A stretch of DNA of 24,000 bases from an uncultured Thermoplasmata archaeon (GCA_965371185.1 CBDUXN010000001.1:1-24000); one strand, 5' to 3'. Shown: positions 6,253 through 22,084, numbered from the stretch's first letter. Numbers and translations: made by a program. Notes: generated by a model not told the origin, from the sequence alone.

Positions 6253-6699
6253 TTACATCCTGTAAGGACTCGGTCCCAAGGCTTTTATCTGCTCCGTCAT
6301 CTCCTTCATAACCTCTGCGAACCTTTGACCTTCTGATGCGGAAATCCATTCCAAGCGATATCGCTCAGGCTCGAGGCCCAAATCCTCCAATAGAAGGAAG
6401 ATCGCATCTGCTCTTTTCTCAGCTATCAGGTTGCCTTCAATGTAATGACAGTCTCCAGGGTGGCAGCCGCACATCAGAACTCCGTCAGCACCTTTTGAAA
6501 GGGCATCGATCACTAAATTGGGATGGACCATCCCTGAGCACATGACGCGGATTATCCTGATATTCGATGGATATTGAAGTCTTGAAGTGCCTGCCAAATC
6601 TGCCCCGGTGTAGGAACACCAGTTGCAACAAAATGCGATTATCAACGGCTCGAAATCCTCTTCTCCTGCTATTCCTTCAGTTGTCCCCCCCTCCACCAT
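6253..6699 (-). CDS. mvhD: MvhD-type hydrogenase/Hdr-bridging [2Fe-2S] subunit (minimal 148-aa form)
   Basis: FlpD/MvhD Cys pattern: FCCNWCSYTGADLAG, RVMCSG, GADGVLMCGCHPGDCHY. ATG directly abuts the stop of the upstream HdrA gene (TAAATG), and GGAGGTGG SD lies inside the upstream gene. Confidence 0.92.
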   Translation of the reverse strand: MVEGGTTEGIAGEEDFEPLIIAFCCNWCSYTGADLAGTSRLQYPSNIRIIRVMCSGMVHPNLVIDALSKGADGVLMCGCHPGDCHYIEGNLIAEKRADAIFLLLEDLGLEPERYRLEWISASEGQRFAEVMKEMTEQIKALGPSPYRM

Positions 6700-9600
6700 T
6701 TAAGCCACCTCCAATACTGCATCTACCATTGCACCCAACTGATTCAATTTGAAACCTTTCACCATTATTCCCTGCTTTGGACAGGTCGCCATGCAAACCC
6801 CACAGCCCTTGCAGGCGGTTTCGTTTCTCTCCACGGTCTTTTTTACCTGTCCGTTTCTCATATACTCGATTAGAGTCAATGCATTATATGGACAAGGATC
6901 TATGCAGTAAGCACAGCCGTCGCAGTTCTCATCTATTACCTCAGAGATCGTGGGCTCAAGTTCCATCGTTTCATTGCAGAGAATCGTGCATGCCCTGGAT
7001 ACCGTACCGCATGCCTGAGAGATGCTTTCATCGATGAATTTCGGGCCATGCGCCAGCCCACAAAGGAACACACCATCATTTGCGAAGTCAACTGGACGAA
7101 GCTTCATATGCGCCTCCAAGAAGAATTTATCCTTGCTCAGCGGAACTTTAAGCATCTGAGCCAATTCTTCATTGTCAGGTTGTGGGAGTGTTGCCGCGCT
7201 CAAAACAACATATTCGGTTTTGATCGTTATCTGTTCGGTCAGTATCGGGTCTGTTACGGTTACGGCCATACCGTCTCCATTCTTAGCGACTTCCGGCATA
7301 TGTTCATCATCGTATCTAATGAATCTCACACCCTTGTCCGCGGCTTCCCTGTAGTAGTCCTCCCTGAAACCATAGGATCGAATGTCCTTGTATAGCACGA
7401 AAATCTCTGCATCAGGGTTCCTCTCCTTGATCTTCAGCGCGTTCTTAATTGCATCTGCACAGCATATCCTGCTGCAATATGGTCTTTCCTCGTTTCGTGA
7501 ACCCACGCACTGAATCATGACCACGCTGTTCGGCTTGAGGTCGGCCTTGGCCAGCTTTTCCTCCAGTTCCATTTGTGTCAAGACGCGCTCATCCTGTCCA
7601 TACAGGTATTCCTTAGGTTTATACTCCAATCCACCGGTAGCGACTATGACAATACCATGCTCGATTTCCGTTTCATCTGAGAGCACGGTTTTAAAATTAC
7701 CCACGAACCCTTCGATGCTCTTCACCGTTGTTCCGAGATGTACCTTGATTTTCTCGTTGTCCACGACCTTTTCAACGGTTTGTTTTAAAATCTCCTGCGG
7801 ATCCTCGTCCTTCTCGCTGAGCACATAGTGAATTCTTCTTAAATTCCCGCCGAGTTCCTTCTCTCTTTCCACGAGATGAACTTCGTAGCCCTGTTTTGCC
7901 AGTTCTAACGCGGCAGTCATACCACTCAAACCCCCTCCGATTACCAGTCCCGACTGAAACACGTTTAAGGTTAATTCGTATAAGGGTTCAAGCAGCCTTG
8001 ACTTCGCTACAGCCATTCTTACCAGATCTTTCGCCTTCAGGGTTGCTTTTTCAGGTTCGTGCATATGAACCCAGGAGCATTGGTCTCTGATATTCGCCAT
8101 TTCAAAGAGGTAGGGGTTCAGACCGCCTTCCTTGGTGGTGCTTCTGAAAAGAGGTTCATGGGTCCTTGGAGTGCAGGAAGCCACAATAACCCTGTTTAAG
8201 TTGTGCTCTTGGATTTTCTCCTTGATACCTTTCTGAGTGTCTTCCGAGCAGGTATAGAGGTTGTGCTCAGAATAAACCACATTCGGCAAAGTCTTAGCGT
8301 ATTCCACAATCTCTGGGACATTAACCACTCCTCCAATATTGATGCCGCAATGGCATATAAAGACACCTATGCGTGGCTCCTCATCGCTAATATCCCTCTC
8401 TGGAGGATACTCTTTGATAGTGATCATTTTTCCTCTCTCAGAGGAGATCATCGAGGATGCTTTTGCTGCCGCACCGCTTGCCTGCGCCACCGTATCGGGA
8501 ATGTCCTTGGGACCGTTGAACACACCGCTGACGAATATCCCGGGTTTGGAGGCCTCTAGAGGCGTGAATACGCCAGTATCGCAGAAATTGTACCTGTTCA
8601 GTTCGATGCCGACCTTTTCTGCCAATTCCTTTACGTTCTCTGGCGGTTGAAATCCTGTAGATAGGACAACGAGGTTGAACTCCTCCTCCTTCAGCTCTCC
8701 ATCTTCCACATACTTCACCATCAAATTCTGAGTTTCAGGCACCTCCGTGATCTCAGCCACCCTGCATCTTGTGAACCCTATTTTATGCTCCTCCTCTGCC
8801 CTCTTGTAGTAATCGTCAAATTCCTTACCGAACGCCCTGAGATCCATGAAGAATATGTGGGATTTCAAGCCCTCAGAGTGCTCCTGTGCGATTATGGCCT
8901 CTTTTAAGGCGAACATGCAGCATACCGATGAGCAGTATTCGTTTCCCATCTGGCTGTCCCTGCTCCCAACGCATTGGATGAACGCCACCTTCTCAGGTAT
9001 GTCACCGTCGGAAGGGCGCATTACCGTGCCCGCGAATGGGCCTGTGGCACTCAAGAACCTCTCGAATTCCATGCTCGATACGACGTTTTTGTATCTGCCG
9101 TAACCGTATTCTGTCTTCAGGGAAGGGTCGAACATGCTGTAACCCGGAGAGAGGATGATGGAGCCCACATTGAGGTCAAATTTCTGCTCCTCCTGGTCGT
9201 ACTCCACTGCATTGGCCTTGCACTCCTCCTCGCATATACCACAGCCTATGCACTTCTCCTTATCTATCATGAATTTTAGGGGCACAGACTGAGGATAACG
9301 AATGAACATAGCCCCTCTTTTTGTGAGCCCCCAGTTGTATTCATCGATGGCCTCAACAGGGCATTTGGAGCCGCATACACCGCATCCGGTACATTTCTCC
9401 TCGTTGATCCTTCTCGGTCTTCGAACGAGCGTCACTTTGAATTTACCTGCCTCGCCTTCCACGGATTCGATCTCCGTGTTGCTGATGACCTCGATGTTAT
9501 GATGCCTGCCTGTGCCAACAAGTTTCGGAGCCATGATGCACATAGCACAGTCGTTGGTGGGGAAAGTCTTGTCCAATTGGGACATCACCCCACCTATGCT

Positions 9601-9717
9601 GGGCAGTTTGTCGATAAGATACACCTTGAAACCTGAATCTGCCAAATCAAGTGATGACTGCATCCCGCTTATTCCGCCGCCAACAACCAGCACGGCCCCG
9701 ATCTTATCACCGCTCAT
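6700..9717 (-). CDS. hdrA: Tandem-fused double HdrA-like flavoprotein (1005 aa), copy 1
   Basis: First half: VVGGGISGMQSSLDLADSG, DKTFPTNDCAMCIMAPK, inserted 2x[4Fe-4S] ferredoxin (CTGCGVCGSKCP, CIGCGICEEEC), CVGSRD..YCSSVCC. Second half: HdrA N-terminal-domain motif GVFICHCGINIGG..ASCTPRTH..CSWVH, a second VIGGGLSGMTAALELAKQG, CVGSRNEERPYCSRICC, FLEAHMKLRPVD, and a C-terminal ferredoxin (CDGCAYCIDPCP, CKGCGVCMATCP). ATG overlaps the upstream stop (ATGA at 9714-9717), with GGAGGTGA SD. Confidence 0.9.
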   Translation of the reverse strand: MSGDKIGAVLVVGGGISGMQSSLDLADSGFKVYLIDKLPSIGGVMSQLDKTFPTNDCAMCIMAPKLVGTGRHHNIEVISNTEIESVEGEAGKFKVTLVRRPRRINEEKCTGCGVCGSKCPVEAIDEYNWGLTKRGAMFIRYPQSVPLKFMIDKEKCIGCGICEEECKANAVEYDQEEQKFDLNVGSIILSPGYSMFDPSLKTEYGYGRYKNVVSSMEFERFLSATGPFAGTVMRPSDGDIPEKVAFIQCVGSRDSQMGNEYCSSVCCMFALKEAIIAQEHSEGLKSHIFFMDLRAFGKEFDDYYKRAEEEHKIGFTRCRVAEITEVPETQNLMVKYVEDGELKEEEFNLVVLSTGFQPPENVKELAEKVGIELNRYNFCDTGVFTPLEASKPGIFVSGVFNGPKDIPDTVAQASGAAAKASSMISSERGKMITIKEYPPERDISDEEPRIGVFICHCGINIGGVVNVPEIVEYAKTLPNVVYSEHNLYTCSEDTQKGIKEKIQEHNLNRVIVASCTPRTHEPLFRSTTKEGGLNPYLFEMANIRDQCSWVHMHEPEKATLKAKDLVRMAVAKSRLLEPLYELTLNVFQSGLVIGGGLSGMTAALELAKQGYEVHLVEREKELGGNLRRIHYVLSEKDEDPQEILKQTVEKVVDNEKIKVHLGTTVKSIEGFVGNFKTVLSDETEIEHGIVIVATGGLEYKPKEYLYGQDERVLTQMELEEKLAKADLKPNSVVMIQCVGSRNEERPYCSRICCADAIKNALKIKERNPDAEIFVLYKDIRSYGFREDYYREAADKGVRFIRYDDEHMPEVAKNGDGMAVTVTDPILTEQITIKTEYVVLSAATLPQPDNEELAQMLKVPLSKDKFFLEAHMKLRPVDFANDGVFLCGLAHGPKFIDESISQACGTVSRACTILCNETMELEPTISEVIDENCDGCAYCIDPCPYNALTLIEYMRNGQVKKTVERNETACKGCGVCMATCPKQGIMVKGFKLNQLGAMVDAVLEVA

Positions 9718-10499
9718 GCCTTCACCTCCTGCATTATGGAGATGTATTTCGGTGTAAAACCGTCGATGCTATCAAGTGCCAACTGATTTTTCTTTCTCAA
9801 ATAAACTACGTGATCCAGAACCTTGTCAGTGGGGATTTCGATCTCCTTGGCAAGCTCCTTTACAGACATCGGATTCTCTTTTATCAGCTCCAGGAGCCTC
9901 TTTCTATAAAACTCAGCTTCTACAGCATCCCCCATAAACTCGTCCCATTCCTCCTGGGTTTTCTTCTCATTGTAAACGTTGCCCAGCTCCACGATCTGTC
10001 TCTCTTTGGCTACAATGGCTCGAAGCCTGAAGTCCAATGCTGCAAGCTTTGCAGCGTTTACGTTCTGCAAAAGTTTCTCATCAGGCTTCTCGCCAGCCAA
10101 TGGGCTTGGCCCCAATTCTTTGATTTGGTTTGTGAATTCCCTCACCAGCTTTGCGAAACGCTCGCCCTCCGAGGCTGCCACCCATTCCATTCTCAGCCTT
10201 TCAGGCTCCAACCCTGCTCTTTTCACAAGTTGTCTCGTCATTTTAATTTTCCTCTCGGCCTGATAGTTACCTTCAAGGTAATGACAGTCCCCGGGATGGC
10301 ACCCGCCAATGAACATACCGTCAACGCCTTGAGCGAAGGCCTCGAGTATAATGTAAGGATCGATCCTACCAGAGCACATCACTCTGATGATCCTGATGTT
10401 CGGTGGATATTGGAATCTGCTCACGCCGGCCAGATCTGCTCCTGCGTATGAGCACCAGTTGCAGAGGAAACCAACGATCTTGGGCTCGAATTCCACCAT
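9714..10499 (-). CDS. MvhD-type protein with ~125-aa C-terminal extension ending in a winged-helix-like domain (261 aa)
   Basis: The core (res 1-133) matches MvhD: FLCNWCSYAGADLAG, RVMCSG, GGCHPGDCHY. The extension has a conserved helical segment (DFRLRAIVAKERQIVELGNVYNE) and then RLLELIKENPMSVKELAKEIEIPTDKVLDHVVYLRKKNQLALDSIDGFTPKYI, read as helix-turn-helix plus wing. Confidence 0.85.
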   Translation of the reverse strand: MVEFEPKIVGFLCNWCSYAGADLAGVSRFQYPPNIRIIRVMCSGRIDPYIILEAFAQGVDGMFIGGCHPGDCHYLEGNYQAERKIKMTRQLVKRAGLEPERLRMEWVAASEGERFAKLVREFTNQIKELGPSPLAGEKPDEKLLQNVNAAKLAALDFRLRAIVAKERQIVELGNVYNEKKTQEEWDEFMGDAVEAEFYRKRLLELIKENPMSVKELAKEIEIPTDKVLDHVVYLRKKNQLALDSIDGFTPKYISIMQEVKA

Positions 10500-13400
10500 C
10501 TATCCCACCTCCCTCACTGCTGCCTTAACCTGGGCTATCAGCTGTTCGTCTGTAAATTGTTTTAGTGATACCGCCTTTTCAGGGCAGCTCGCCGCGCAGG
10601 TCCCGCAGCCCTTGCAAAGCACCTCGGTTACTCTCGCTATATCGTTCTCGTCCTTCTCTATCGCGTTGAATGGGCATAGCACAACGCAAGTACCACATCC
10701 TGTACAGATATTCTCATCTATGGTGGAAACCACCCCTTCTGCCTCAAGGATCTCTTTGGAGAGGATCGTGGAGGCTCTTGATACGGCAGCGCTCGCTTGG
10801 GAAACACATTCCTCAAAGAATTTTGGTGAGTGGGCAAGTCCGCAAAGGAATATACCTTCAGTGGCGAATTCTACGGGACGAAGCTTCATATGCGCTTCCA
10901 AAAAGAATCCATGCTTGCTCAGCGGCACCTTCAACATCTGCGCCAACTCACCGTTATCTGGGTGTGGTATTGTGGCTGCGCTCAAAACCAGAAGGTCTGG
11001 TTCAATTACAATTTCCTCGTCAAGGAACTGCTCTTTGATCTTCACCCTCAAACCCTTCTTATCGCTCACCTCGGGTTTTGTTTCGTCATCGTATCTAATG
11101 AACTTTATACCTTTTTTCGCTGCCTCCTCATAAAACACCTCGCTGAAACCGTAGGTTCTGATATCTTTGAATAGCACATAGACATTTGCATCCGGTTTCA
11201 ACTCCTCGATCTTTAGGGCGTTTTTCACTGCCTCGGTGCAGCATACTCTACTGCAATACGGCCTCTCTTCATTTCTGCAGCCAACGCATTGAATCATTAC
11301 TATGGTATCTGCATCGACCTTACTCTTAGCCAGCCTTTCCTCCAGTTCCAGTTGGGTTAGAACATTTTTATTTTTACCGTAAAGGTACTCCGTAGGCTTG
11401 TACTCCTGTCCTCCAGTTGCCACTATGACTATTCCATGCTCGATTTCCTTATCTTCGCCGTTATGGTCTACAAGCGTTTTGAAGTTGCCAATATATCCCG
11501 ATATATTTTTCACTGTGCTGTTTGTGAATACATGGATCTTTTCATCTGAATCAATGCTTTTTATCAGTTTTTTCATTTTTTTCTGGATGTCCTTCTTCTC
11601 GCCAACCATTTCGTAATGTATTCGTTTCATTAGACCTCCAAGTTCATTCTCCCTTTCAACGATGAACGCCTCATAGCCTTGTTTAGAAAGCTCTAATGCT
11701 GCGGTCATGCCGCTCAATCCACCCCCTATGACCAGACCTGAAGGTTTAATGTCTATGGGAACTCGTTTTAAGGGCTCAAGTAAACCAGCCTTTGCCACCA
11801 CCATTCTTACCAAATCTTTGGCTTTTTGTGTTGCTTTCTCAGGTTCATGCATATGCACCCATGAGCACTGGTCGCGAATATTCGCCATCTCAAAAAGATA
11901 CGGGTTTAAACCCGCCTCAGCCACCGTATTTTGGAAAAGGGGTTGATGTGTTCTAGGAGTGCACGATGCAACTATCACTCTGTTCAATCCGTGCTCTTCG
12001 ATCTTTTCTCCGATCTTCTTTTGCGTATCCTGAGAGCATGTGTAGAGATTATTCTCAGCATAGACCACATTTGGTAGTGTCTTTGCATACTCCACCACCT
12101 CAGGTACATTCACTACACCACCTATGTTGATGCCGCAGTGGCATACAAAAACACCTACGCGGGCCTCTTCACCACTTATATCTCTCTCTGGTGGGTACTC
12201 CTTTACAGTGACCAGTTTTCCACGCTCAGAGGCGATGACAGATGAAGCTTTGGCTGCTGCACCACTTGCCTCTGACACGCTGTCAGGGATATCCTTTGGT
12301 GCACCAAATGCTCCGCCTACAAATATCCCGGGGCGAGAGGTCTCTAACGGGGAGAACAATATATCTGTAGAGCAAAAATCGTATGGGTTCAGCTCTATAC
12401 CGAGCTTGGTGCTCAGATCCTCTGCATCCTTTGGTGCTGTCATTCCCACAGCCAGTGCTACCATATCGAACTCCTCTGAGACCAGTTGCCCTTCTTTGAT
12501 ATAAGTTATGAAAAGATTATTGGTTTCCGGGTCCTCAGCGATAGAGGATATCCTGTTGTTTTTTATGAAGTTTATACCATGCTCTTTCTCAGCCCTTATG
12601 TAGTAATCATCGAATTCTTTACCGAAGGCACGCATATCCATGAAGAATATGGTTGCCTTCAAGCCCGGGGTGTGCTCCTGCGCTATCACAGCCTCCTTTA
12701 TCGCGAACATGCAGCAAACAGAGGAACAATATGGGTTGCCGATGCTTCTGTCTCTGGAACCCACACATTGTATGAACGCTATCTTCTTCACCAGCTCCCC
12801 ATCTGAGGGCCTTAAAACCAATCCACCGTATGGACCTGTGGCGCTGAGCATCCTCTCCAGCTCAAGGCTTGAAACAACGTTTGGATACCTGCCGTAGCCG
12901 TATTCCCTTCTCTTTTTGAGTAAATCAAATTCATCAAAACCAGGTGAGACAATTATTGAACCCACATTCAATTCTTGTGTTTCCTCCTCTTGGTTGTAAA
13001 CGATTGCACCTGCCGTGCAGTTTCTTTCACAGTTTCCGCAGCCGATGCAATGATCTTTATCTATGGTGAATATTAGTGGCACAGCTTGAGGATATCTAAC
13101 GTAGATAGCTTTGCGAACCTTGAGACCTTTATTGTAGTCATCCACTACCTCAACAGGGCACTTTTGGGTACAGATTCCACATCCAGTACATTTGTTCTCA
13201 TCTACATATCTGGACCTTTTGATGATGGTGACCTTGAAATTACCTGCATCCCCTTCGACCTTCTCTAAATGCGCATTCGTTATCAGATCTATATTACGAT
13301 GCCTTCCAGTCTCAACCAATTTTGGGGCCATGATGCACATGGCACAGTCGTTTGTGGGAAAGGTTTTATCAAGCTGGGCCATAGCCCCGCCGATGCTCGG

Positions 13401-13511
13401 GCTTTTGTCCAAAAGGTATACTCTAAACCCTGAATCGGCCAAGTCCAGGGAGGACTGCATGCCTGCGATTCCTCCACCCACAACCAGAACTGCTCCTACC
13501 GCATCGGTCAT
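10500..13511 (-). CDS. hdrA: Tandem-fused double HdrA-like flavoprotein (1003 aa), copy 2
   Basis: Same motif series as copy 1: GGGIAG, DKTFPTNDCAMC, CTGCGICTQKCP, CIGCGNCERNC, GVFVCHCGINIGG, GGGLSG, CVGCRNEERPYCSRVCC, CTGCGTCVVLCP, CKGCGTCAASCP. ATGA overlap with the upstream MvhD-like gene (13508-13511). Its stop abuts the next ATG (10499/10500). Confidence 0.9.
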   Translation of the reverse strand: MTDAVGAVLVVGGGIAGMQSSLDLADSGFRVYLLDKSPSIGGAMAQLDKTFPTNDCAMCIMAPKLVETGRHRNIDLITNAHLEKVEGDAGNFKVTIIKRSRYVDENKCTGCGICTQKCPVEVVDDYNKGLKVRKAIYVRYPQAVPLIFTIDKDHCIGCGNCERNCTAGAIVYNQEEETQELNVGSIIVSPGFDEFDLLKKRREYGYGRYPNVVSSLELERMLSATGPYGGLVLRPSDGELVKKIAFIQCVGSRDRSIGNPYCSSVCCMFAIKEAVIAQEHTPGLKATIFFMDMRAFGKEFDDYYIRAEKEHGINFIKNNRISSIAEDPETNNLFITYIKEGQLVSEEFDMVALAVGMTAPKDAEDLSTKLGIELNPYDFCSTDILFSPLETSRPGIFVGGAFGAPKDIPDSVSEASGAAAKASSVIASERGKLVTVKEYPPERDISGEEARVGVFVCHCGINIGGVVNVPEVVEYAKTLPNVVYAENNLYTCSQDTQKKIGEKIEEHGLNRVIVASCTPRTHQPLFQNTVAEAGLNPYLFEMANIRDQCSWVHMHEPEKATQKAKDLVRMVVAKAGLLEPLKRVPIDIKPSGLVIGGGLSGMTAALELSKQGYEAFIVERENELGGLMKRIHYEMVGEKKDIQKKMKKLIKSIDSDEKIHVFTNSTVKNISGYIGNFKTLVDHNGEDKEIEHGIVIVATGGQEYKPTEYLYGKNKNVLTQLELEERLAKSKVDADTIVMIQCVGCRNEERPYCSRVCCTEAVKNALKIEELKPDANVYVLFKDIRTYGFSEVFYEEAAKKGIKFIRYDDETKPEVSDKKGLRVKIKEQFLDEEIVIEPDLLVLSAATIPHPDNGELAQMLKVPLSKHGFFLEAHMKLRPVEFATEGIFLCGLAHSPKFFEECVSQASAAVSRASTILSKEILEAEGVVSTIDENICTGCGTCVVLCPFNAIEKDENDIARVTEVLCKGCGTCAASCPEKAVSLKQFTDEQLIAQVKAAVREVG

Positions 13512-14293: not shown

Positions 14294-14312
14294 TTTTTCA
14301 CTCTCCTAAATA

Positions 14313-14597
14313 TCACTCCGGTTCTACTCCAGACATCAAACCTCTTACACAAACAGAAAAATTACAGGCATCGGTTCTCGCCCTCTCACAGTAATGGCAC
14401 CGCAACGTTAACAACACTTCCCTGATGATCCATTCTTTTGTCTCGTCGTCAACATCTGGAAGATTCTTTTTGATGTCTTCTATGCTTTTGGTTTGCACAT
14501 CCTTCCATTTCGGCTGTGTTGAAAGGAGCATCCTTTTCTTCCAGGCATTCCTCATCTCCTCTATCTTCTTCTGCTCTTCTTCGTTTAATTCGCTCAA
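14313..14597 (-). CDS. Small Cys4 protein (94 aa), paralogue of 17605-17913
   Basis: Conserved block with its paralogue: W.(D/Q)VQTK.I...LP(D/E).D(D/E)ETK..I.R..LLTLRCH(Y/S)CERAR(T/S)D(A/E)CNFSVC(V/I)RGL, i.e. CX2CX7CX4C. TTG start overlaps the HdrA stop (TTGA 14594-14597) and is preceded by AGGAGGGGAT SD. An internal ATG (EEMRNAW) is a possible alternative start. Confidence 0.6.
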   Translation of the reverse strand: MSELNEEEQKKIEEMRNAWKKRMLLSTQPKWKDVQTKSIEDIKKNLPDVDDETKEWIIREVLLTLRCHYCERARTDACNFSVCVRGLMSGVEPE

Positions 14598-17500
14598 GCG
14601 ATCCCCTCCTTAAGTGCAGCGACAGCCTGTGCAAGAATCTGCAAATCCGTAAAGTGGGCAATATCAATGGCCTTCTCAGGACAAGCAGCGCTACAGGTGC
14701 CGCATCCCTTGCATAATACCTCGGCCACCTTCGCCTTCAATTCTTCCATATCAACACTTACTGCCCCGTACGGGCATACCATTTCGCAGGTACCGCAGCC
14801 TGTACATTTTTCCTCATCAACAGAAGATACCACCCCCTCAACAAAGAGCCTCTCTTTCGATAGAATCGTGGCAGCTCTTGAAACAGCAGCGCTTGCCTGT
14901 GAGATACATTCGTTAAAGAATTTGGGCGAATGAGCCAAGCCGCACATGAAGATGCCATCTGTTGCGAATTCCACTGGACGCAGCTTCATATGCGCTTCCA
15001 AGAAAAATCCGTCCTTACTCAAGGGTACCTTCAGCAGTTGTGCCAATTCAGAGTTGTCTGGGTTGGGAAGCGTTGCGGCGCTCAACACCAGGTAATCTGG
15101 TTTCAATACGATATCCTCATTCAGAAAATGATCAAAAACCTTGACTTGTAGGCCATCATCATCGGTAGCCACCGGCTTCGTTTCGTCATCGTATCTGGTG
15201 AAATTGACACCCTGCTTTGCCGCCTCTTCGTAGTAAATTTCCCTGAAACCGTATGTTCTCATATCCTTATACAGGATGAAGACGCTGATATCGGGATTCT
15301 TTTCTTTAACCTTCAATGCATTTTTAACGGCCTCCACACAGCACACCCTGCTGCAGTAGGTTCGAGCTTCGTCCCTGCAACCTACACACTGGATCATAAC
15401 CACCGTTTTGGCTTTGGGATTCAATTCATTATTGAACAGAATATTATCGAATTCTAGCTGGGTAAGCACTTTTTCATTTTTACCGTATAAGTACTCCGTA
15501 GGTTTGTATTCGATACCACCTGTGGCAACGATAATTGCCCCATGTTCAAGGGTCTTCTCTTCGCCATTATGATCCAAGGTACTGACGAAGTTCCCGACAT
15601 AGCCCGAGACGTTCTTTATCACCGTATTTTTATAGACGGTAATTTTGTCGTTTGCCTCGACCTTTGAAAGGGTCTCATTCAGATACCCAGGGATATCTTC
15701 CCCCTTTAAACCGTAATGGAGTCTTTTTACCAGTCCTCCCAATTCATTCTCCTTCTCCACCAGGTAGGCCTCAAATCCCTGCTCCGCAAGTTCCAAGGCT
15801 GCCTGCATCCCGCTTATTCCTCCGCCTATTACCAGGGCGGATTGTTTTACCTCGATCGATATCTTTGGCAGTGATGTGTTCAATCTCGCTTTTGCCACCG
15901 CCATCCGTACCAGATCTTTCGCCTTCTCCGTGGCTCTTTCCGGATCGTTCATGTGGACCCACGAGCACTGATCGCGAATGTTCGCCATCTCAAAGAGGTA
16001 CGGGTTCAAACCTCCTTCAGCCACAGTGTTTTGGAACAATGGCTGATGTGTCCTGGGAGTGCAAGAGGCTACCATCACACGATTGAGGTTATGCTCCTTG
16101 ATCATCTCCTTTATGTGCTCCTGTGCATCTTGGGAACACGTGTACAGATTATCTTCCGCATGAGCGACATTCGGCAGTGTTTTCGCATATTCCACAACAC
16201 CAGGAACATCCACAACACCCCCGATATTAATGCCGCAATGACAGATAAAAGCTCCAATGCGAGGCTCCTCACCAGAAACATCCTTCTCCTCTGGATATTC
16301 CTTTACCGTGGTGAGCGTATCCCTTTGTGATGAAATGACGCTCGACGCTCTTGCTGCTGCTCCAGAAGCTTGGGCAACGCTGTCAGGAATGTCCTTTGGA
16401 TCCTGGAACACACCGGATACGAATATTCCCGGCTTGTTCGTACCTATGGGAGAGAATATGGTGGTACTGCAGAAGTCGAAATCGTTTAATTCGATCCCCA
16501 ATTTTTCGCCCAGCTCTTTTGCATGTTTGGGGTGTTCCATGCCCACCGCAAGAACGACTAAATCGAACTCTTCCTCCTTTAGTTCGCCCTCCTCGATATA
16601 TACTATTTTGAGATTCTTTGTATCACGCATCTCCTCAACAGAAGAAATGCGATTGTTGCTGACAAATCTCACTTTATGTTCATCGGCAGCCCTGATGTAA
16701 TAATCATCGAATTCCTTGCCGAAGGCCCGCATGTCCATGAAGAATATGGTTGAACTCAGGCCTGGAGTATGTTCTTGCGCTATAACCGCCTCTTTTATTG
16801 CGAACATGCAGCATACTGAGGAGCAGTATGGGTTGCCGATGCTTCTGTCTCTGGAACCCACACACTGGATAAATGCTATTTTCTGGGCTATCTTTCCATC
16901 CGATGGTCTGAGAACAACACCTCCATAGGGGCCAGTTGCGCTCAGCATGCGCTCCAATTCGAGACTTGATACAACGTTGGGAAATCTGCCGTAGCCGTAC
17001 TCCCTTCTCATGGTGCTCAGATCGAACTCCTCGAACCCTGGAGACACGATGATCGAGCCCACGTTCAGTTCCATATCTTCCGGTGTTTGGGAATATTGTA
17101 TCGCCCCAGCCCTGCACTGGGTATCGCAGATGCCGCATCCTATGCAGTGATCCTGGTCTATGCAATGGGTTGGAGGTACAGCCTGGGGATATCCGATGTA
17201 GATCGCCTTTCTGACCTTGAAGCCCCTGTTGTACTCATCCTTGACCTCAACAGGGCAGCGCTGTGTACACAGACCGCAGCCTGTACATTTGCTCTCGTCC
17301 ACGTACCGGGGCCTTTTACTCACGGTGACCTTGAAATTGCCTGCCTCGCCTTCCACCTTTTCCACATCAGCATTCGTTATCAGCTTGATGTTGTGATGTC
17401 TTCCCGTCTCAACCAACTTAGGGGCCATGATGCACATTGCACAGTCGTTCGTTGGGAACGTTTTGTCCAACTGAGCCATGGCACCGCCAATGCTGGGTGA

Positions 17501-17608
17501 GCTGTCAACTATGTACACATAATAACCTGAATCAGCCAAATCCAGTGACGACTGCATGCCTGCTATTCCGCCGCCTATGACAAGAACAGCACCCACCTTA
17601 TCGCTCAT
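14594..17608 (-). CDS. hdrA: Tandem-fused double HdrA-like flavoprotein (1004 aa from ATG 17608), copy 3
   Basis: Motif series as copies 1-2: GGGIAG, DKTFPTNDCAMC, CTGCGLCTQRCP, CIGCGICDTQC, GAFICHCGINIGG, GGGISG, CVGCRDEARTYCSRVCC, CTGCGTCEMVCP, CKGCGTCSAACP. The track start (17662) adds 18 non-homologous residues. ATG 17608 (MSDKVGAVLVIGGG) aligns with the paralogues, has GGAGGTG 7 nt upstream, and forms ATGA with the upstream stop. Confidence 0.9.
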   Translation of the reverse strand: MSDKVGAVLVIGGGIAGMQSSLDLADSGYYVYIVDSSPSIGGAMAQLDKTFPTNDCAMCIMAPKLVETGRHHNIKLITNADVEKVEGEAGNFKVTVSKRPRYVDESKCTGCGLCTQRCPVEVKDEYNRGFKVRKAIYIGYPQAVPPTHCIDQDHCIGCGICDTQCRAGAIQYSQTPEDMELNVGSIIVSPGFEEFDLSTMRREYGYGRFPNVVSSLELERMLSATGPYGGVVLRPSDGKIAQKIAFIQCVGSRDRSIGNPYCSSVCCMFAIKEAVIAQEHTPGLSSTIFFMDMRAFGKEFDDYYIRAADEHKVRFVSNNRISSVEEMRDTKNLKIVYIEEGELKEEEFDLVVLAVGMEHPKHAKELGEKLGIELNDFDFCSTTIFSPIGTNKPGIFVSGVFQDPKDIPDSVAQASGAAARASSVISSQRDTLTTVKEYPEEKDVSGEEPRIGAFICHCGINIGGVVDVPGVVEYAKTLPNVAHAEDNLYTCSQDAQEHIKEMIKEHNLNRVMVASCTPRTHQPLFQNTVAEGGLNPYLFEMANIRDQCSWVHMNDPERATEKAKDLVRMAVAKARLNTSLPKISIEVKQSALVIGGGISGMQAALELAEQGFEAYLVEKENELGGLVKRLHYGLKGEDIPGYLNETLSKVEANDKITVYKNTVIKNVSGYVGNFVSTLDHNGEEKTLEHGAIIVATGGIEYKPTEYLYGKNEKVLTQLEFDNILFNNELNPKAKTVVMIQCVGCRDEARTYCSRVCCVEAVKNALKVKEKNPDISVFILYKDMRTYGFREIYYEEAAKQGVNFTRYDDETKPVATDDDGLQVKVFDHFLNEDIVLKPDYLVLSAATLPNPDNSELAQLLKVPLSKDGFFLEAHMKLRPVEFATDGIFMCGLAHSPKFFNECISQASAAVSRAATILSKERLFVEGVVSSVDEEKCTGCGTCEMVCPYGAVSVDMEELKAKVAEVLCKGCGTCSAACPEKAIDIAHFTDLQILAQAVAALKEGIA

Positions 17609-17913
17609 CTGAACACCTCCTGACCGGAGAGGAGACCTCTTATACATACGGAGAAGTTGCACTCATCACTCCTCGCCCTCTCACAGCTGTGGCATCTCAA
17701 CGTTAGGAGCATGTTCCTAGTGATTTTCTTCTTCGTCTCTTCATCGATTTCGGGCAGTGAGGCCAAGCATTCCTGGATGATTTTGGTTTGAACCTGCCCC
17801 CATCTTGGGAGCGTGGAGATGCGTTCCCGATCTTGCCAGGAATCTCTTATCATCTTTATTCTCCCCTTTGTACCTTTGCTCTTAGACTTGGTAGGGGGTT
17901 CTTCTCTCTTCAT
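17605..17913 (-). CDS. Small Cys4 protein (102 aa), paralogue of 14313-14597
   Basis: Same C-terminal block, LLTLRCHSCERARSDECNFSVCIRGLLSG. Basic N-terminus (KREEPPTKSKSKGTKGRIK). ATG overlaps the upstream MvhD-like stop (ATGA 17910-17913), with GGAGGTG SD. Confidence 0.65.
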   Translation of the reverse strand: MKREEPPTKSKSKGTKGRIKMIRDSWQDRERISTLPRWGQVQTKIIQECLASLPEIDEETKKKITRNMLLTLRCHSCERARSDECNFSVCIRGLLSGQEVFR

Positions 17914-18830
17914 CTGAGCACCTCCTCTTTCAGGGTTATGTAAAGAGGCATCACGCCGTCGAACTTGTCCACCATAACCAAACCTCTATCTTTAAGGGTG
18001 ACGATATGCTGCAGCACCTTTTGCGGGGGGAGTTGGATATTGGAAGCGATATCTATAACGGAGTAGGGTCCGTCCATGGTCATAAGAAGAATTTTCTGCC
18101 TGGCAATCTCATCATCTATCGCTCTCTCCATAAGATCGTCAAATTCTTCCTGCGAAAGCTTGTTATCGTAGACATTGCCCTTCTCTATCAGCTCAATTTC
18201 TTTGGCCACAAGAGACCTCAACCTGAAATCCCTTACAGCGTTCTTGGCGGCGAAGAGGGTTTCAAGTTTTTCAATGTCGGGCTTATCTCCCGCTACAGAA
18301 CTGGGGCCCAGAGCCTTTATTTCATTAACAAAATCCTCCACAACCTTGGAAAATCTCTCGCCTTCCGATGCGGATATCCATTCCAAGCGCAATCGCTTCG
18401 GTTCAACTCCTGCCTTCTCGATCAATTTTCTTGCCAGCTTGACCTTCTTCTCTGTGAAGTAATTTCCTGTTATATAGTGACAATCGCCGAGATGGCAGCC
18501 TCCAACGAGCACACCATCCGCACCGTGAATGAACATCTCAATTATGAGAACAGGGTCAATCCTGGAGCTGCACATTACCCGAACCGTCCGAGTGTTTGTA
18601 GGATACTGGTATCTGCTCACGCCCGCCAAATCCGCACCTGCGTAAGAGCACCAGTTGCAGAGAAAGGCTATGATCTTCGGCTCGAATTCTTTTCCAGTTT
18701 TTTCCTCTTCTGCTTTGGCTTCAACTTTCTTTTTGAGCTTTAATTTGATGGTTTTCTTCTTTGGCTTCTCAGCTTTATCTTCCACTTTCTCCTCTTTAGA
18801 GGCGTTTTGTAAGCTCTGTTCTTCGCTCAA
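17910..18830 (-). CDS. MvhD-type protein with Lys/Glu-rich N-terminal extension and C-terminal winged-helix-like extension (306 aa)
   Basis: Core: FLCNWCSYAGADLAG, RVMCSS, GGCHLGDCHY. C-terminal extension: DFRLRSLVAKEIELIEKGNVYDN ... KILLMTMDGPYSVIDIASNIQLPPQKVLQHIVTLKDRGLVMVDKFDGVMPLYI. The N-terminal 47 aa are K/E low complexity. TTG start (TTGA overlap 18827-18830) is supported by GGAGGAGGTGG 5 nt upstream and by the absence of any internal Met before the core. Confidence 0.8.
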   Translation of the reverse strand: MSEEQSLQNASKEEKVEDKAEKPKKKTIKLKLKKKVEAKAEEEKTGKEFEPKIIAFLCNWCSYAGADLAGVSRYQYPTNTRTVRVMCSSRIDPVLIIEMFIHGADGVLVGGCHLGDCHYITGNYFTEKKVKLARKLIEKAGVEPKRLRLEWISASEGERFSKVVEDFVNEIKALGPSSVAGDKPDIEKLETLFAAKNAVRDFRLRSLVAKEIELIEKGNVYDNKLSQEEFDDLMERAIDDEIARQKILLMTMDGPYSVIDIASNIQLPPQKVLQHIVTLKDRGLVMVDKFDGVMPLYITLKEEVLR

Positions 18831-20710
18831 GTTCCCACCTCCTCCAAGGCCGCGATGGCTTCAGCGGTGAGCTGCTCGTCCGTGTAATGTGTCATGGATA
18901 TCGCCTTCTCTGGGCAGATGGAGCCGCAGGTCCCGCAGCCCTTACATGCCGCCACGATGGTCTCAGCTATGCCTTCTTCATCGAATTGGATCGCTCCATA
19001 TGGACAGACCTTTTCACATGATCTACACCCCGAGCATCGCTCCCTGTCCACCTGGGAAACGATGGCCTCTGCCTGAACATAACCCTTACCCATAGGTATA
19101 GAGGCATGAGAGGCTGCGCCGTATGCCTGAGCCACTGTCTCGTTGATGTTTGCTGGGCCGTGAGCTGTGCCGCACAGGAATATACCATCCGTTGCAAAAT
19201 CCACGGGGCGGAGCTTGACATGGGCCTCCAAGAAGAAACCGTCCCTACCCAAAGGAACCTTGAGCAGCTTTGACAGCTCCACTGCTCCAGGCCTCTGGGT
19301 AAGAGGTGTTGCCAACACTATCAGATCAGGCTGCATCCTCCTATCAGCCTTCAACGTTTCGTGGTAGTAGGATATCGTGAGCTTTCCGTCCTCCATCGTA
19401 ACTTTCGGCGGGTTCTCGGGAACGAAGCGTGTGAACTTAACCCTTTTTTCTCTGGACTTATTGTATAAAAGCTCTTGCTCTACCCCGTAAGTTGTTATTC
19501 CCCTGTTGAATACGGTAACCTCCACACCACCCCTTTCTTTCGGTCTTTCTTCGCCTCTCTCAACTCCCCGCCTTCTCGTGGGTCTCCTCGCCCTTCTGTC
19601 CCTTCTGCTCCTTCTTCCTGATGCTCTTTGCTCCTCTGGTTCCTCCGCTGCCTCCTCCTTTCCTTCCTCGGCTTGTTCCTCCTCCCCATTTTCATCCCCC
19701 TTTGCCTCAGCGGCACCTGATGCCATTTCCATGAGCTTCATGGCGTTTTTCACGGTTACAGTGCAGCAGATCCTCGAGCAGTACTCCTTGTCCTGACCCC
19801 TCGAGCCCGCACATGTGATAAACGCAACGTTCTTTAGGTCCGAGGGGAGCTTATCCTCCCTGGCCATTTCCTCGAAATCAGTTAATGTTATAACGTTATC
19901 GAACTCTCCCAATCCGTACAGGCCTTTTGGCCTGTGTTCCTCAGCACCTGTAGCCACTATGATCGTGCCTACACCTATCTCCTTATCCTCGCCATTGACG
20001 TCAAGAACTGCATCGTATTTGCCGATGTATCCCTTTAAAAATTTCAGATTTGTATTCGTGTACAAATGGATTTTTTCATTTGCTTTCACCTTTTCAATCA
20101 GGGGTTCTACGACTTTGTTACCGCTCTCCCCTGTTTGGTAGAGGGTGTTCAGCTTCTTGATAAAGCCGCCAAGCTCAGGCTCCCTCTCGATCAAATGGGT
20201 TTCGAAACCTTGGTTTGCCAGGTTGAGGGCAGCGGTCATACCAGCCACTCCACCTCCCAACACAAGAGAAGATGGCCTGACATCTATTTTCACTTCCTCC
20301 TGCGGTTCGAGAAGTGTGGCCCGAGCGACACCCATTCTTATCAGATCCTTGGCCTTTTCAGAGGCTCTCTCCTTCTCCTTCATGTGCACCCATGAGCAGT
20401 GCTCCCTGATGTTCACGAAGGTGAACAGGTATTTGTTCAACCCGGCCTCTTCGCAAATTCTCATGAAAAGCGGTGCGTGGGTACGGGGTGTGCATGATGC
20501 CACGATCACCCTGTTGAGGTTGTGCTCCTTTATGGCGTTCTTAATCGCCGTTAACCCGTCATCAGCGCAAGTGTAGAGGTTATTCTCGGCATGAACCACA
20601 TTGGGCAATGTCCTTGCATAATCCGCAACGGTTGGCACATCGACGAAGCCGCCGATGTTCACCCCACAGTGGCAGACGAACACACCGATTCTTAGCGTTT
20701 CCTGTTCCAT
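18827..20710 (-). CDS. hdrA: HdrA-like flavoprotein, C-terminal-half type (627 aa): N-terminal Cys domain + FAD domain + C-terminal ferredoxin, with a charged low-complexity insert
   Basis: GVFVCHCGVNIGG..ASCTPRTH..CSWVH, LGGGVAGMTAALNLANQG, CAGSRGQDKEYCSRICC, FLEAHVKLRPVD, CSGCRSCEKVCP, CKGCGTCGSICP. It is collinear with the second half of the fused copies. ATG shares one nt with the upstream stop (TGATG 20708-20712), with GGTGGTGA SD. Confidence 0.88.
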   Translation of the reverse strand: MEQETLRIGVFVCHCGVNIGGFVDVPTVADYARTLPNVVHAENNLYTCADDGLTAIKNAIKEHNLNRVIVASCTPRTHAPLFMRICEEAGLNKYLFTFVNIREHCSWVHMKEKERASEKAKDLIRMGVARATLLEPQEEVKIDVRPSSLVLGGGVAGMTAALNLANQGFETHLIEREPELGGFIKKLNTLYQTGESGNKVVEPLIEKVKANEKIHLYTNTNLKFLKGYIGKYDAVLDVNGEDKEIGVGTIIVATGAEEHRPKGLYGLGEFDNVITLTDFEEMAREDKLPSDLKNVAFITCAGSRGQDKEYCSRICCTVTVKNAMKLMEMASGAAEAKGDENGEEEQAEEGKEEAAEEPEEQRASGRRSRRDRRARRPTRRRGVERGEERPKERGGVEVTVFNRGITTYGVEQELLYNKSREKRVKFTRFVPENPPKVTMEDGKLTISYYHETLKADRRMQPDLIVLATPLTQRPGAVELSKLLKVPLGRDGFFLEAHVKLRPVDFATDGIFLCGTAHGPANINETVAQAYGAASHASIPMGKGYVQAEAIVSQVDRERCSGCRSCEKVCPYGAIQFDEEGIAETIVAACKGCGTCGSICPEKAISMTHYTDEQLTAEAIAALEEVGT

Positions 20711-22011
20711 CAGCTCACCACCTTGGTTGTAAGGAGCTCCGCAGCCCTCGCAGCGGCACCGCTCGCCTGGGTTACAGCCTCAGGAATATCCATGGGCTCA
20801 TGACAGTAACCAGCCAGATAAATTCCAGGCCGCTTGGTGTCAACTGGGTTCAGCAGCTTGTCCACAGATTCGTAGAAGCCGAACTCATCCACGTCGATTC
20901 CAAGAAGCTCTGCCAGTTCTTTGGCACCCTTCCTGGGCATGAGCGTTGTCGCCAGAACCACCATGTCAACCTCCATCTTCTCCTGTCTACCAGCCACATC
21001 ATATATTACAATGGGGTTATGGTTGTCGGGATTCTCATCCACGGTGGCGTCTGAGTTGATGTATGTGATACCGTAATCGCTCTTTCCCCTCTCCACGTAC
21101 TCGTTGAAACCCTTGCCGAAGGTCCTCAAATCCTTATAAAAGATGAACGATTCCATGTCATCGTGATGCTCCCTTGCCAATATCGCCTCCTTCGTAGAGT
21201 GCATGCAGCAAACACTGCAGCAGTACGGACGGTCCAACTGTGGATTCCTCGAACCAACGCACTGTATGAACCCGATTTTCTTGGGCCTTTCGCCGTCGGA
21301 ACGTCTCTGTATATGTCCGCCTGTTGGTCCTGAGGCGTTGATCAGGCGCTCGAATTCCATGGATATAAAGACATTGGGAATCTTACCGTAGCCGTATTCT
21401 TTTGCACTGGTTGGGTCCCAAACATCGAATCCCGTGGCAACGATGATCGCAGCCACGTTCAACTTCACCTCCTCGGGGCCCTTATCGAATTCTATTGCGC
21501 CGATTTTACACAGCTTCTCGCACACCCTGCACTTGCCCTTCGTGAAGAATATGCAGTTCTCCTCGTCTATGGTCATGACCCTTGGAACGGCCTGTAAGAA
21601 TGGTAAATAGATGGCCTTTCTCATGCCCAAATTCATATCGAATTCATTTGGGACCTTGACTGGACATTTTGCGTTACAGTCACCGCAACCAGTGCATACA
21701 TCCTCCTTTACATGCCTGGCCTTTCTCAGCACCTTCACCTCATATTTTCCTGCCTCACCTTCTATGCCTTTAACCTCAGAATAGGTCATGACCTTGATGT
21801 TTTCGTGGCCAAAACAATCTGCCATCTTCGGGGCAAGTATGCAGATGGAGCAATCGTTCGTGGGAAAGGTCTTGTCCAGTTGAGCCATTCTTCCCCCGAT
21901 GCTCGTTTCCCTTTCCACGAGATAGACCTGCATACCTTTATCAGCCAAATCCAAAGAGGCCTGGATCCCTGCGATGCCTCCGCCTATGACCAAAACGCTT
22001 TTGTCTTCCAT
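20710..22011 (-). CDS. hdrA: HdrA-like flavoprotein, N-terminal-half type (433 aa, QmoA-like size/architecture)
   Basis: VIGGGIAGIQASLDLADKG, DKTFPTNDCSICILAPK, CTGCGDCNAKCP, CIFFTKGKCRVCEKLC, CVGSRNPQLDRPYCCSVCC. It is collinear with the first half of the fused copies and ends where their inter-half linker begins. It is the first gene after a 194-nt intergenic region. Confidence 0.88.
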   Translation of the reverse strand: MEDKSVLVIGGGIAGIQASLDLADKGMQVYLVERETSIGGRMAQLDKTFPTNDCSICILAPKMADCFGHENIKVMTYSEVKGIEGEAGKYEVKVLRKARHVKEDVCTGCGDCNAKCPVKVPNEFDMNLGMRKAIYLPFLQAVPRVMTIDEENCIFFTKGKCRVCEKLCKIGAIEFDKGPEEVKLNVAAIIVATGFDVWDPTSAKEYGYGKIPNVFISMEFERLINASGPTGGHIQRRSDGERPKKIGFIQCVGSRNPQLDRPYCCSVCCMHSTKEAILAREHHDDMESFIFYKDLRTFGKGFNEYVERGKSDYGITYINSDATVDENPDNHNPIVIYDVAGRQEKMEVDMVVLATTLMPRKGAKELAELLGIDVDEFGFYESVDKLLNPVDTKRPGIYLAGYCHEPMDIPEAVTQASGAAARAAELLTTKVVS

Positions 22012-22084
22012 TTTATGCCCCCATTAACTTTGAAGGAAACGATACTTTACTCCCCTCATTTGAAGGTTTTAAGGCAATCCTGAA

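Follow-up and report, generated by a model that had tools for sequence, protein, structure and literature searches.

Genes of the array and the convergent hydrogenase

Flavin-based electron bifurcation (FBEB) is the route by which strict anaerobes obtain low-potential electrons without adenosine triphosphate. We analyzed a stretch of 24,000 nucleotides (nt) from an uncultured Thermoplasmata archaeon (GCA_965371185.1, CBDUXN010000001.1:1-24000; hereafter, the window), the minus strand of which carries, at 6253-22011, an array of genes encoding four HdrA-type units and four MvhD-type adaptors. A [NiFe] hydrogenase is encoded on the opposite strand. The array genes, in the order in which they would be transcribed, and the hydrogenase genes are as follows (aa, amino acids; FAD, flavin adenine dinucleotide):

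20710..22011, minus strand: HdrA N-half, 433 aa; TrxR-like FAD domain, NDCxxC (Cys194/197 equivalents), inserted 2x[4Fe-4S] ferredoxin and TrxR [4Fe-4S], from Pfam and the residue table against 5odc_A
18827..20710, minus strand: HdrA C-half, 627 aa; N-terminal cluster domain, second TrxR-like FAD domain, C-terminal 2x[4Fe-4S] ferredoxin
17910..18830, minus strand: long MvhD, 306 aa; Lys/Glu-rich N-terminal tail, MvhD/FlpD core with LCNWC, helical linker and winged helix; FlpD 3e-52, weak HTH_5
17605..17913, minus strand: Cys4 accessory protein, 102 aa; C-x2-C-x7-C-x4-C, no Pfam or NCBIfam family
14594..17608, minus strand: fused double HdrA, 1004 aa; "middle" paralogue group, chimera
14313..14597, minus strand: another Cys4 accessory protein, 94 aa; shares 56% identity with the 102-aa Cys4
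13508..14293, minus strand: long MvhD, 261 aa (D261a); MvhD core, helical linker and ArsR/SmtB-like winged helix; FlpD 3e-56
10500..13511, minus strand: fused double HdrA, 1003 aa; "middle" paralogue group
9714..10499, minus strand: long MvhD, 261 aa; FlpD 6e-56 and PF0610-like_N
6700..9717, minus strand: fused double HdrA, 1005 aa; ancient "last" paralogue group, always adjoining the hydrogenase-proximal MvhD
6253..6699, minus strand: canonical short MvhD, 148 aa; CCNWC, no winged helix, FlpD 5e-56; presumed connector to MvhGA
3794..6204, plus strand: mvhG (319 aa) and mvhA (481 aa); [NiFe] hydrogenase, group-3c-like, encoded convergently to the array; Pfam Oxidored_q6 (MvhG) and NiFeSe_Hases (MvhA)

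All 11 open reading frames (ORFs) were recovered in an ORF listing of the window at the lengths first reported, and re-reading every junction together with Pfam searches upheld the gene list, family assignments and tight coupling of the original prediction. The genes overlap by ATGA at four junctions (9714-9717, 13508-13511, 17605-17608 and 17910-17913), by TTGA at two (14594-14597 and 18827-18830) and by TGATG at one (20708-20712), while two pairs abut stop to start without a gap (6699/6700 and 10499/10500) and the sole spacer inside the array measures 19 nt (14294-14312). The same tightness (-4, -1, 0, +1) recurs at the junctions of relatives' arrays. Shine-Dalgarno sites resembling GGAGGTG had been described at almost every start; nine starts have a GGAGG(T/G)G-type site, one has AGGTGGTGA, and the first gene has only a weak GGGGG. 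For the 1004-aa gene, the ATG at 17608 was preferred over the GTG at 17662 chosen by the ORF caller because it combines a Shine-Dalgarno site, an ATGA overlap and agreement with the paralogue alignment. Pfam identified FlpD/MvhD in four proteins (1e-52 to 1e-56; PF02662 scores of 176-189 bits against a cut-off of 22.3) and HdrA-type FAD and Fer4 domains in the five large ORFs, which scored below the cut-offs of the NCBIfam HdrA and HdrA2 models. All eight of the expected GGG[ILV][SA]G motifs were present, two per HdrA unit at about residues 10 and 595. An MvhD-type [2Fe-2S] adaptor gene follows every HdrA unit, giving a 1:1 ratio. Rfam and tRNA scans returned nothing.

The repeat unit of the array spans 3.8-4.4 kb, and its paralogues share 62-72% protein and 60-77% nucleotide identity; judging by this divergence, they are old. 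Against orthologues in two related loci, L002 (CP070739.1) and L008 (CP070751.1), the array genes showed dN (nonsynonymous divergence) of 0.06-0.16 with dS (synonymous divergence) saturated, and dN/dS was 0.03-0.08 for the four of 11 genes where it could be computed, a pattern that indicates strong purifying selection on all 11. Because the repeats are old and divergent and dN is low against saturated dS, we consider the genes real and functional. An assembly artefact or recent duplication was rejected, as the repeats are only 60-77% identical at the nucleotide level and the array is syntenic in other genomes, and so was decay of the paralogues, with dN/dS at or below 0.08 wherever computable.

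The hydrogenase has intact MvhA motifs (L1 RITTSICGVC and L2 DPCLSCATH) and a cleavable C-terminal tail of 25 aa. Its large subunit matches 9sfi_g (8.8e-121), MvhA 5odc_F (2.9e-118) and 7t2r_D best among solved structures, with similar E-values and all of them group-3-type large subunits, and the NCBIfam VhuA and VhuG models remained below cut-off (VhuA, 455 bits against an equivalog cut-off of 800). The mvhGA transcription unit has no mvhD of its own, so within the window a single hydrogenase indeed faces four HdrA/MvhD units, as originally proposed. A short MvhD gene followed by a convergent hydrogenase was likewise found in five related loci (L002, L003, L004, L016 and L017).

Double HdrA units and two classes of MvhD adaptor

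We compared the eight HdrA halves residue by residue with HdrA of M. thermolithotrophicus (5odc_A). In the 1003-aa protein, residues 8-378 correspond to HdrA 146-516 (TrxR domain and inserted ferredoxin), residues 448-595 to HdrA 2-149 (N-terminal cluster domain) and residues 868-1001 to HdrA 516-652 (C-terminal ferredoxin), with a more divergent second TrxR domain between the latter two; Pyr_redox_2 and FAD-domain Pfam matches occur in both halves of the HdrA units. The N halves, including the 433-aa protein, carry Cys194/Cys197, the eight cysteines of the inserted ferredoxin and those of the TrxR cluster (Cys386/399/403/404) and have neither the N-terminal cluster domain nor the C-terminal ferredoxin, while the C halves, including the 627-aa protein, show the reverse pattern, the second FAD domain of the latter being devoid of Cys194/197 and of the inserted ferredoxin. 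Since this complementarity of domains and cysteines is strict in all four units, each of them, three fused and one split, is by sequence a built-in heterodimer, that is, a predicted asymmetric pseudo-heterodimer with two FAD and seven [4Fe-4S] clusters, of the design known as BamE or type II HdrA. The Lys409 equivalent was found in all eight halves and that of Glu356 in seven, with Asp in the eighth. No canonical HdrA of ~650 aa with all five domains was present in the 24-kb window, and no fused HdrA was found among the PDB structures searched with the 1003-aa protein.

The split gene pair had been listed as the N- and C-terminal parts of an HdrA. Both genes were confirmed, but rather than being pieces of one canonical HdrA, they correspond to the two halves, N and C, of the fused proteins of ~1000 aa; the 433-aa protein lacks the N-terminal cluster domain and the C-terminal ferredoxin and shares 45-47% identity with the N halves of its fused paralogues. 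Orthologues in L004, L007, L008, L009 and L026 share the split, which on this distribution is ancient. A frameshift or selenocysteine read-through was rejected, given that the overlap shifts the frame and that the split is conserved in orthologues. The second TrxR domain of the 627-aa protein also contains an insert of ~63 aa (aa 332-394, about nt 19529-19717), low in complexity and acidic, then Arg-rich; its position and charge pattern, not its sequence, are kept in L008, L004, L007 and L009, and it is missing from the fused paralogues.

This HdrA design has precedents. BamE, resolved by cryo-electron microscopy (cryo-EM) of the BCRII complex of Geobacter metallireducens, is a fused, domain-permuted HdrA dimer (bioRxiv 10.64898/2026.04.10.717634); "type II HdrA" shares the fused design and keeps Lys and Glu in both halves of most members (PMC12054007); and a heterodimer has been proposed for the tandem or fused HdrA of anaerobic methanotrophic archaea (ANME) (PMC9012536). 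Compared by description, the window proteins resemble BamE in being fused HdrAs of ~1000 aa with two TrxR-FAD domains, a Cys-x2-Cys in TrxR1, and one inserted and one C-terminal ferredoxin; they differ in TrxR2, where BamE has Gln whereas both TrxR halves in the window carry the Lys and Glu hallmarks of a bifurcating flavin. With type II HdrA (HdrA3/4) and the tandem pairs (HdrA5/6 and 12/13) of ANME and methanogens, they share lengths above 1000 aa, two HdrA-like halves and the complementary distribution of N-terminal domain and Cys197 (PMC9012536, PMC12054007), as well as tandem split versions and association with MvhD, FrhB/FdhB and sometimes HdrD. In contrast, the clusters described from ANME and methanogens combine FdhB, Molybdop and HdrBC with a single HdrA gene or with two. 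Arrays of 4-8 pairs, a long-adaptor class and Cys4 are all missing from those descriptions, and the hosts are ANME/Methanosarcinales rather than a Thermoplasmata lineage.

The four MvhDs align with solved MvhD over ~134 residues (residues 1-134 only for D261a against 5odc_D), beyond which the long ones (261, 261 and 306 aa) extend by ~125 residues. An AlphaFold2 (AF2) model of D261a, with a predicted local distance difference test score (pLDDT) of 85.8, placed helices at 141-205, plus a winged helix-turn-helix (wHTH) at 213-254. Foldseek matched the model to MvhD with a template modeling score of 0.85 and its C-terminal domain to SmtB, HlyU and NolR at a probability of 1.0, and Pfam returned weak HTH_20, HTH_5 and PF0610-like_N matches in the extension of the long proteins. 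Equivalents of MvhD Cys13, 16, 42, 67 and 72 are conserved, and Cys12 is found only in the 148-aa protein. Across a comparison set of 72 sources (the window plus 71 related loci, for which a fused HdrA served as the query), 74 of the 80 motif-bearing winged-helix MvhDs read LCNWC, Leu replacing the Cys12 of M. thermolithotrophicus MvhD; CCNWC is found in 21/21 HdrD-fused MvhDs and in 38/60 motif-bearing short ones, including the 148-aa protein of the window. In more distant relatives, the winged-helix domain is a stand-alone ORF between a short mvhD and mvhG. By motif, AF2 model and Foldseek match, the long MvhDs are thus predicted to be a distinct, BamF-like adaptor class with an ArsR-like winged helix, and the statement that one MvhD wires one hydrogenase to one HdrA fits only the last of the four (148 aa). 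The 306-aa protein (17913-18830) additionally has a Lys/Glu-rich N-terminal extension of ~45 residues; the corresponding protein is shorter in L002/L003 (268 aa) and longer in L004 (325 aa).

BamF itself is an MvhD adaptor >100 aa longer than usual, and its winged helix contacts the input subunit BamI (bioRxiv 10.64898/2026.04.10.717634). Again by description and not by sequence, the likeness to the long MvhDs lies in this extra length and in the winged helix-turn-helix. BamF has a selenocysteine near the cluster, whereas the long adaptors of the window have Leu at the position of canonical MvhD Cys12, the pairing of these two positions being tentative.

Two of the three long MvhDs are accompanied by a Cys4 protein, which is lineage-specific. 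The Cys4 family is narrow, with 127 matches among 5.8e9 proteins and nine clusters among 1.84e9 representatives, and matched no curated family in Pfam or NCBIfam. Its name, taken from the original prediction, holds insofar as the proteins are small and Cys-rich, but the family alignment has three invariant cysteines (C74, C77 and C90) and two nearly invariant ones (C85 and C49). The AF2 model reached a pLDDT of 59, falling below 50 across the Cys motif. As a function, the "ribosomal protein L44E" label given by JGI was rejected, since it rests on a Pfam match of 15 bits against a cut-off of 25. Because a natural fusion, P0363, joins an MvhD core, a winged helix and Cys4, Cys4 is most likely an accessory of the long adaptor.

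Relatives, module history and flanking genes

The closest relatives of the array are found in Thermoplasmata and "Methanomassiliicoccales" metagenome-assembled genomes, and a search for the same gene order in related genomes recovered it in Thermoplasmata. L002 (CP070739.1) and L003/L008 (CP070751.1) contain the same array with five modules, followed by a short MvhD, convergent mvhA/G, HycI and HypE, while L004 has four modules. More distant Thermoplasmata display a co-directional arrangement of MvhD, HdrA of ~1011 aa, MvhD-HdrD fusion, split HdrA pair (431 + 625 aa), long MvhD, HdrA of ~1013 aa, short MvhD, stand-alone winged-helix protein, MvhG and MvhA. At least three HdrA units on one strand were found in 39 of the 72 sources, and related arrays extend to Asgard (Jordarchaeia) and Syntrophales loci. 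Tandem HdrA/MvhD arrays are therefore widespread. The original prediction would have been undercut by an 11-gene order both widespread and already characterized; no such characterization emerged from the literature searched.

As proposed for dating the duplications, we built a distance tree of the HdrAs, which resolved three ancient paralogue groups in a fixed order, namely the split pair, "middle" and "last", kept across lineages that have diverged to ~55-65% identity. The "middle" group has expanded in the lineage of the window, which has 4-5 modules. The 1004-aa HdrA is a chimera: residues 1 to ~925 correspond to module 1 (AA1) of L002/L003, and the C-terminal ferredoxin, from about aa 932 (nt 14597-14815), to module 2 (AA2), the last ~75 residues being 80-90% identical to module 2 against 58-75% to module 1. 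The retained ferredoxin still adjoins "its" downstream Cys4 and MvhD genes. The four-module state of the window therefore arose by unequal recombination, in which a long MvhD, a Cys4 gene and the greater part of an HdrA were deleted; the module lost from L004 is a different one. The four-fold number, initially presented as the possibly new element, is thus not special in itself; the conserved core consists of three paralogue groups, the lineage has four or five modules, and the window's four reflect the loss of one.

Two more distant kinds of locus deserve mention. L013 (Jordarchaeia, JAHAWU010000009.1; 1073-22304) combines split and fused HdrA with MvhDs, a stand-alone winged-helix ORF and no fewer than four hdrC/hdrB-like pairs, and its ratio of CCG proteins to HdrA units is far higher than in Thermoplasmata arrays. 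L058-L066, from Syntrophales and other Desulfobacterota, have a bacterial four-gene version, in which an HdrA of ~1500 aa that contains an NfnB/GltD-like insert is followed by a long MvhD (~255 aa), a fused HdrA (~1015 aa) and a short MvhD (~112 aa), with the same succession of HdrA then MvhD.

The upstream side of the array comprises the following features:

22012..22205, minus strand: upstream spacer of the array, 194 nt; conserved block at ~22082-22152 that includes an AT-rich, TATA-like element; probably a promoter or regulatory region
22206-23308, minus strand: tandem pair of TATA-binding-protein paralogues (185 and 182 aa; identity, 53%; overlap, 4 nt)
23449..24000, minus strand: C-terminal part of an FrhB/FdhB-like flavoprotein running off the window; Pfam FrhB_FdhB_C 1.5e-38, NCBIfam frhB-like

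The spacer has a mean column identity of 83% with the FrhB-HdrA spacers of L008 and L006, at a distance where synonymous sites are saturated. Its conserved AT-rich block of ~70 nt (22082-22152) contains ATATATCGTCATAAAnTATnTATCATnAAA, has no Rfam match and is probably an archaeal promoter or operator; because of this conserved promoter-like spacer, the array looks like its own transcription unit. An inverted repeat seen in the L008 and L006 spacers was dropped as a candidate, as it is not conserved in the window. The TATA-binding-protein pair sits between the FrhB-like gene and the spacer, a position where L008, L006 and the JGI contig described below have none.

No hdrBC or mvhB had been seen in the window, and Pfam indeed found neither a CCG-domain (HdrB/D) protein nor a polyferredoxin in its 24 kb. 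The picture changes in relatives. In L008, the co-directional genes directly upstream of the HdrA-N orthologue encode MvhD, an HdrD-like protein (381 aa; 2 Fer4 and 2 CCG), an HdrA of 596 aa, a short MvhD and FrhB. A JGI contig of 39,962 bp has the same upstream set (HdrD-like, HdrA of ~590 aa, short MvhD and FrhB), preceded further upstream by an HdrA of 1117 aa, a long MvhD, Cys4 and an HdrA-MvhD fusion of 1177 aa. In both, the HdrD-like gene lies 3.7-5 kb upstream of the HdrA-N orthologue, and an HdrD-like protein or MvhD-HdrD fusion is immediately upstream in L004, L009 and others, amounting to ~20 Thermoplasmata loci beyond L004. Since the window ends inside the FrhB gene and relatives encode this HdrD-like set upstream, the apparent lack of hdrBC is very probably a window-edge effect, the region beyond 24000 being judged by synteny with relatives. 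A metagenome scan with the FrhB fragment gave one weak 2-kb match only, and exact-sequence look-ups of two window proteins found no entry. The original prediction had conceded that hdrBC just beyond the window in the same operon would make the locus ordinary; this is probably half true, in that relatives have an HdrD-like gene upstream, with the conserved promoter-like spacer between it and the array.

On the left flank, we found the following:

27-554, plus strand: PD-(D/E)XK nuclease-like ORF at the left window edge
613-1176, plus strand: MarR-like HTH and nucleotidyltransferase ORF, left window edge
1160-1504, plus strand: HEPN ORF, overlapping the preceding one
1624-2697, minus strand: HypE-like, Pfam AIRS/AIRS_C
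3064-3552, minus strand: HycI-type endopeptidase, Pfam HycI

The ORFs at 613-1176 and 1160-1504 look like an MNT/HEPN toxin-antitoxin-type pair. The HypE/HycI maturation genes are also neighbors in L002-L004. MvhG and MvhA of the window are only 31% and 43% identical to the co-directional ones (L009:17675-20212), and the stand-alone winged-helix ORF of distant Thermoplasmata arrays is absent from the window. As the cluster evolved, its hydrogenase partner seems to have been either replaced or inverted.

Proposed co-assembly of the modules and competing explanations

The original prediction left open whether the modules are alternative or co-assembling; co-assembly remains viable and is favored by the evidence gathered here. 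By analogy with solved complexes, we give a probability of roughly one half to the reading in which the modules co-assemble into a multi-module, hydrogenase-linked bifurcating/confurcating assembly. In 86 of 87 cases, the gene that comes after a long MvhD gene, or after a Cys4 gene adjoining it, encodes an HdrA, while a short MvhD gene is followed by a hydrogenase (sometimes via a stand-alone wHTH protein), an HdrD-like gene, FrhB or the end of the operon. Fusions in relatives, namely HdrA-MvhD (1177 aa), MvhD-HdrD (532 aa) and MvhD-wHTH-Cys4 (P0363), support the rule that HdrA is followed by MvhD and then by the next redox module. Co-function of non-redundant modules is further suggested by the constant order of the three paralogue groups, by purifying selection, by the retained tight junctions and promoter-like block, and by an mvhGA that lacks an mvhD but adjoins the short one in five loci.

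MvhD, or ElpC, is a generic connector of donor modules to HdrA (PMC12350162). As the solved Mvh-, Fdh- and Elp-Hdr complexes have MvhD joining a donor module to HdrA on the side of its C-terminal ferredoxin, the short 148-aa MvhD would plug the last HdrA (1005 aa) into the convergent [NiFe] hydrogenase MvhGA. Each long adaptor would bind the C-terminal-ferredoxin side of the preceding HdrA, and its winged helix, since that of BamF contacts BamI, may dock onto the redox module encoded next, which in the window is always another HdrA. The HdrA modules would in this way form a hetero-oligomeric, multi-flavin complex linking H2/H+ with ferredoxin via the inserted ferredoxin domains, and also with HdrD-like (disulfide-type) and FrhB-like (F420-type) terminals, encoded upstream in relatives.

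The Bam system offers the nearest parallel. In the bam cluster, the genes run in the order bamE, bamF and then the input-module genes, and the likeness consists in an HdrA-like subunit, an adaptor and the next redox module, together with an HdrD-like partner, which here is found in relatives only. The Bam module has one HdrA/adaptor pair, whereas the window has four in tandem and relatives have up to ~7-8 HdrA units, upstream genes included; its partner is BamGHI or BamBC rather than a [NiFe] hydrogenase; it has no Cys4 counterpart; and the lineage of the window is archaeal. Cryo-EM of BCRII showed FBEB modules assembled in series (bioRxiv 10.64898/2026.04.10.717634). A more specific proposal, which we regard as unlikely, is a linear multi-flavin assembly in which the long MvhDs, together with Cys4, link the HdrA pseudo-dimers as a daisy chain; it would have three MvhD-plugged terminals ([NiFe] hydrogenase, FrhB-like and HdrD-like), both flavins of each unit would be functional, and bifurcation or confurcation events would be coupled in series.

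Several points weigh against co-assembly, against series wiring or against both. Short MvhDs precede an HdrA gene in 14 cases, so that the gene-order rule is strict only for the long class, and a long MvhD before an HdrA can also be read as the adaptor of that following HdrA. The gene-order counts come from phylogenetically related loci retrieved with a fused-HdrA query and are not independent, and the case for co-assembly and series wiring is built from gene order, fusions and analogy. The hydrogenase genes form a transcription unit of their own, convergent with the array. HdrD-like acceptors stand to HdrA units at ~1:7 in relatives (JGI contig), which leaves most high-potential outlets unexplained. 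Finally, the second flavin of BamE is non-bifurcating (Gln768), whereas the window has Lys409 and Glu356 (one Asp) in both halves, and the BamE wiring may not transfer.

The best-surviving alternative, possible though on the unlikely side, is that each HdrA with its MvhD forms a separate bifurcating complex, these parallel isoenzymes using different donors, acceptors or ferredoxins or competing for one hydrogenase, with the tandem reflecting duplication history and shared regulation. The paralogues, 62-72% identical and with complete cofactor sets, could each act alone; the varying module number (4 or 5) and the tolerated chimeric HdrA suggest interchangeable units; and the literature mostly reads multiple HdrA copies as alternative complexes (PMC9012536, PMC12054007). 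However, three of the four adaptors fall outside the canonical hydrogenase type, no donor or acceptor genes lie between the modules, and the long adaptors bear a docking domain with HdrA as the next gene. The fixed order of three ancient paralogue groups, combined with obligate translational coupling, suggests stoichiometric co-production instead.

It is improbable that the locus is an expanded but ordinary Mvh-Hdr locus, that is, a canonical MvhAGD-HdrA-HdrBC/D system for some heterodisulfide with redundant or spare HdrA and MvhD copies, even though relatives have an HdrD-like gene and FrhB just upstream and such genes are simply annotated, in papers on related Thermoplasmata and Asgard archaea, as HdrABC/MvhADG with an unknown heterodisulfide as substrate. 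The window does share with MvhAGD-HdrABC (5ODC) and the Elp/Fdh-Hdr complexes (PMC12350162) a group-3c-type MvhA/MvhG, a canonical 148-aa MvhD, conserved HdrA cofactor residues, the presumed use of MvhD as donor-HdrA connector and, upstream in relatives, an FrhB-like + MvhD + HdrA arm. Yet MvhAGD-HdrABC is built on a homodimeric HdrA of ~650 aa, while the operon in the window has no such HdrA, no hdrBC and no mvhB, and three of its four MvhDs belong to another class. Spare copies also fit poorly with the purifying selection indicated for all 11 genes, with the retention of each paralogue's orthologues over deep divergence and with the JGI contig's ratio of ~7:1 between HdrA units and CCG proteins. 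A non-methanogenic metabolism is reported for related Thermoplasmata clades (bioRxiv 10.1101/2020.03.09.984617), and CoM-S-S-CoB is an unlikely substrate if the host is non-methanogenic too.

Highly improbable is the idea that the long MvhDs are redox-sensing transcription factors whose [2Fe-2S] senses and whose ArsR-like winged helix binds DNA and regulates the operon. In its favor, the C-terminal domain resembles ArsR/SmtB repressors in fold and, weakly, in sequence (HTH_20 and HTH_5), and some members bear the JGI label "predicted transcriptional regulator." Against it, the operon contains three copies, all of them in translational coupling with an enzyme subunit of 1000 aa; the net charges of the three winged helices (+3, 0 and -2) make DNA binding less likely; the homologous BamF winged helix is a protein-protein contact in a solved complex; and the domain is also found by itself, as an ORF that separates mvhD from mvhG.

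All protein families of the locus except Cys4 were already known, as were fused and tandem HdrA, genomes with multiple HdrA copies and HdrA-MvhD-FrhB clusters. Literature searches by accession and for archaeal Bam-like arrays returned no description, and the literature searched contained none of the multi-module array, the distinction between adaptor classes with its gene-order rule, Cys4 or the link to BamE/BamF. Structures from 2025-26 show that Hdr-type modules plug into varied donor modules via MvhD (PMC12350162) and that two bifurcation modules can be coupled in series (bioRxiv 10.64898/2026.04.10.717634). To these, the locus and its Thermoplasmata relatives add a natural system of four to eight BamE/BamF-like modules, in fixed order and co-translated beside a hydrogenase, with two adaptor classes that can be distinguished by sequence and a previously undescribed Cys4 family. 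Without co-assembly, the locus would retain its value to biochemistry as a compact catalogue of specialized HdrA isoenzymes. If a linear cascade is correct, it would be a natural series of bifurcating modules beyond the two-module coupling of BCRII. Taken more broadly, co-assembly, if true, would make this the largest known hierarchy of bifurcating units, and the role of many "orphan" HdrA paralogues of non-methanogenic archaea would become testable.

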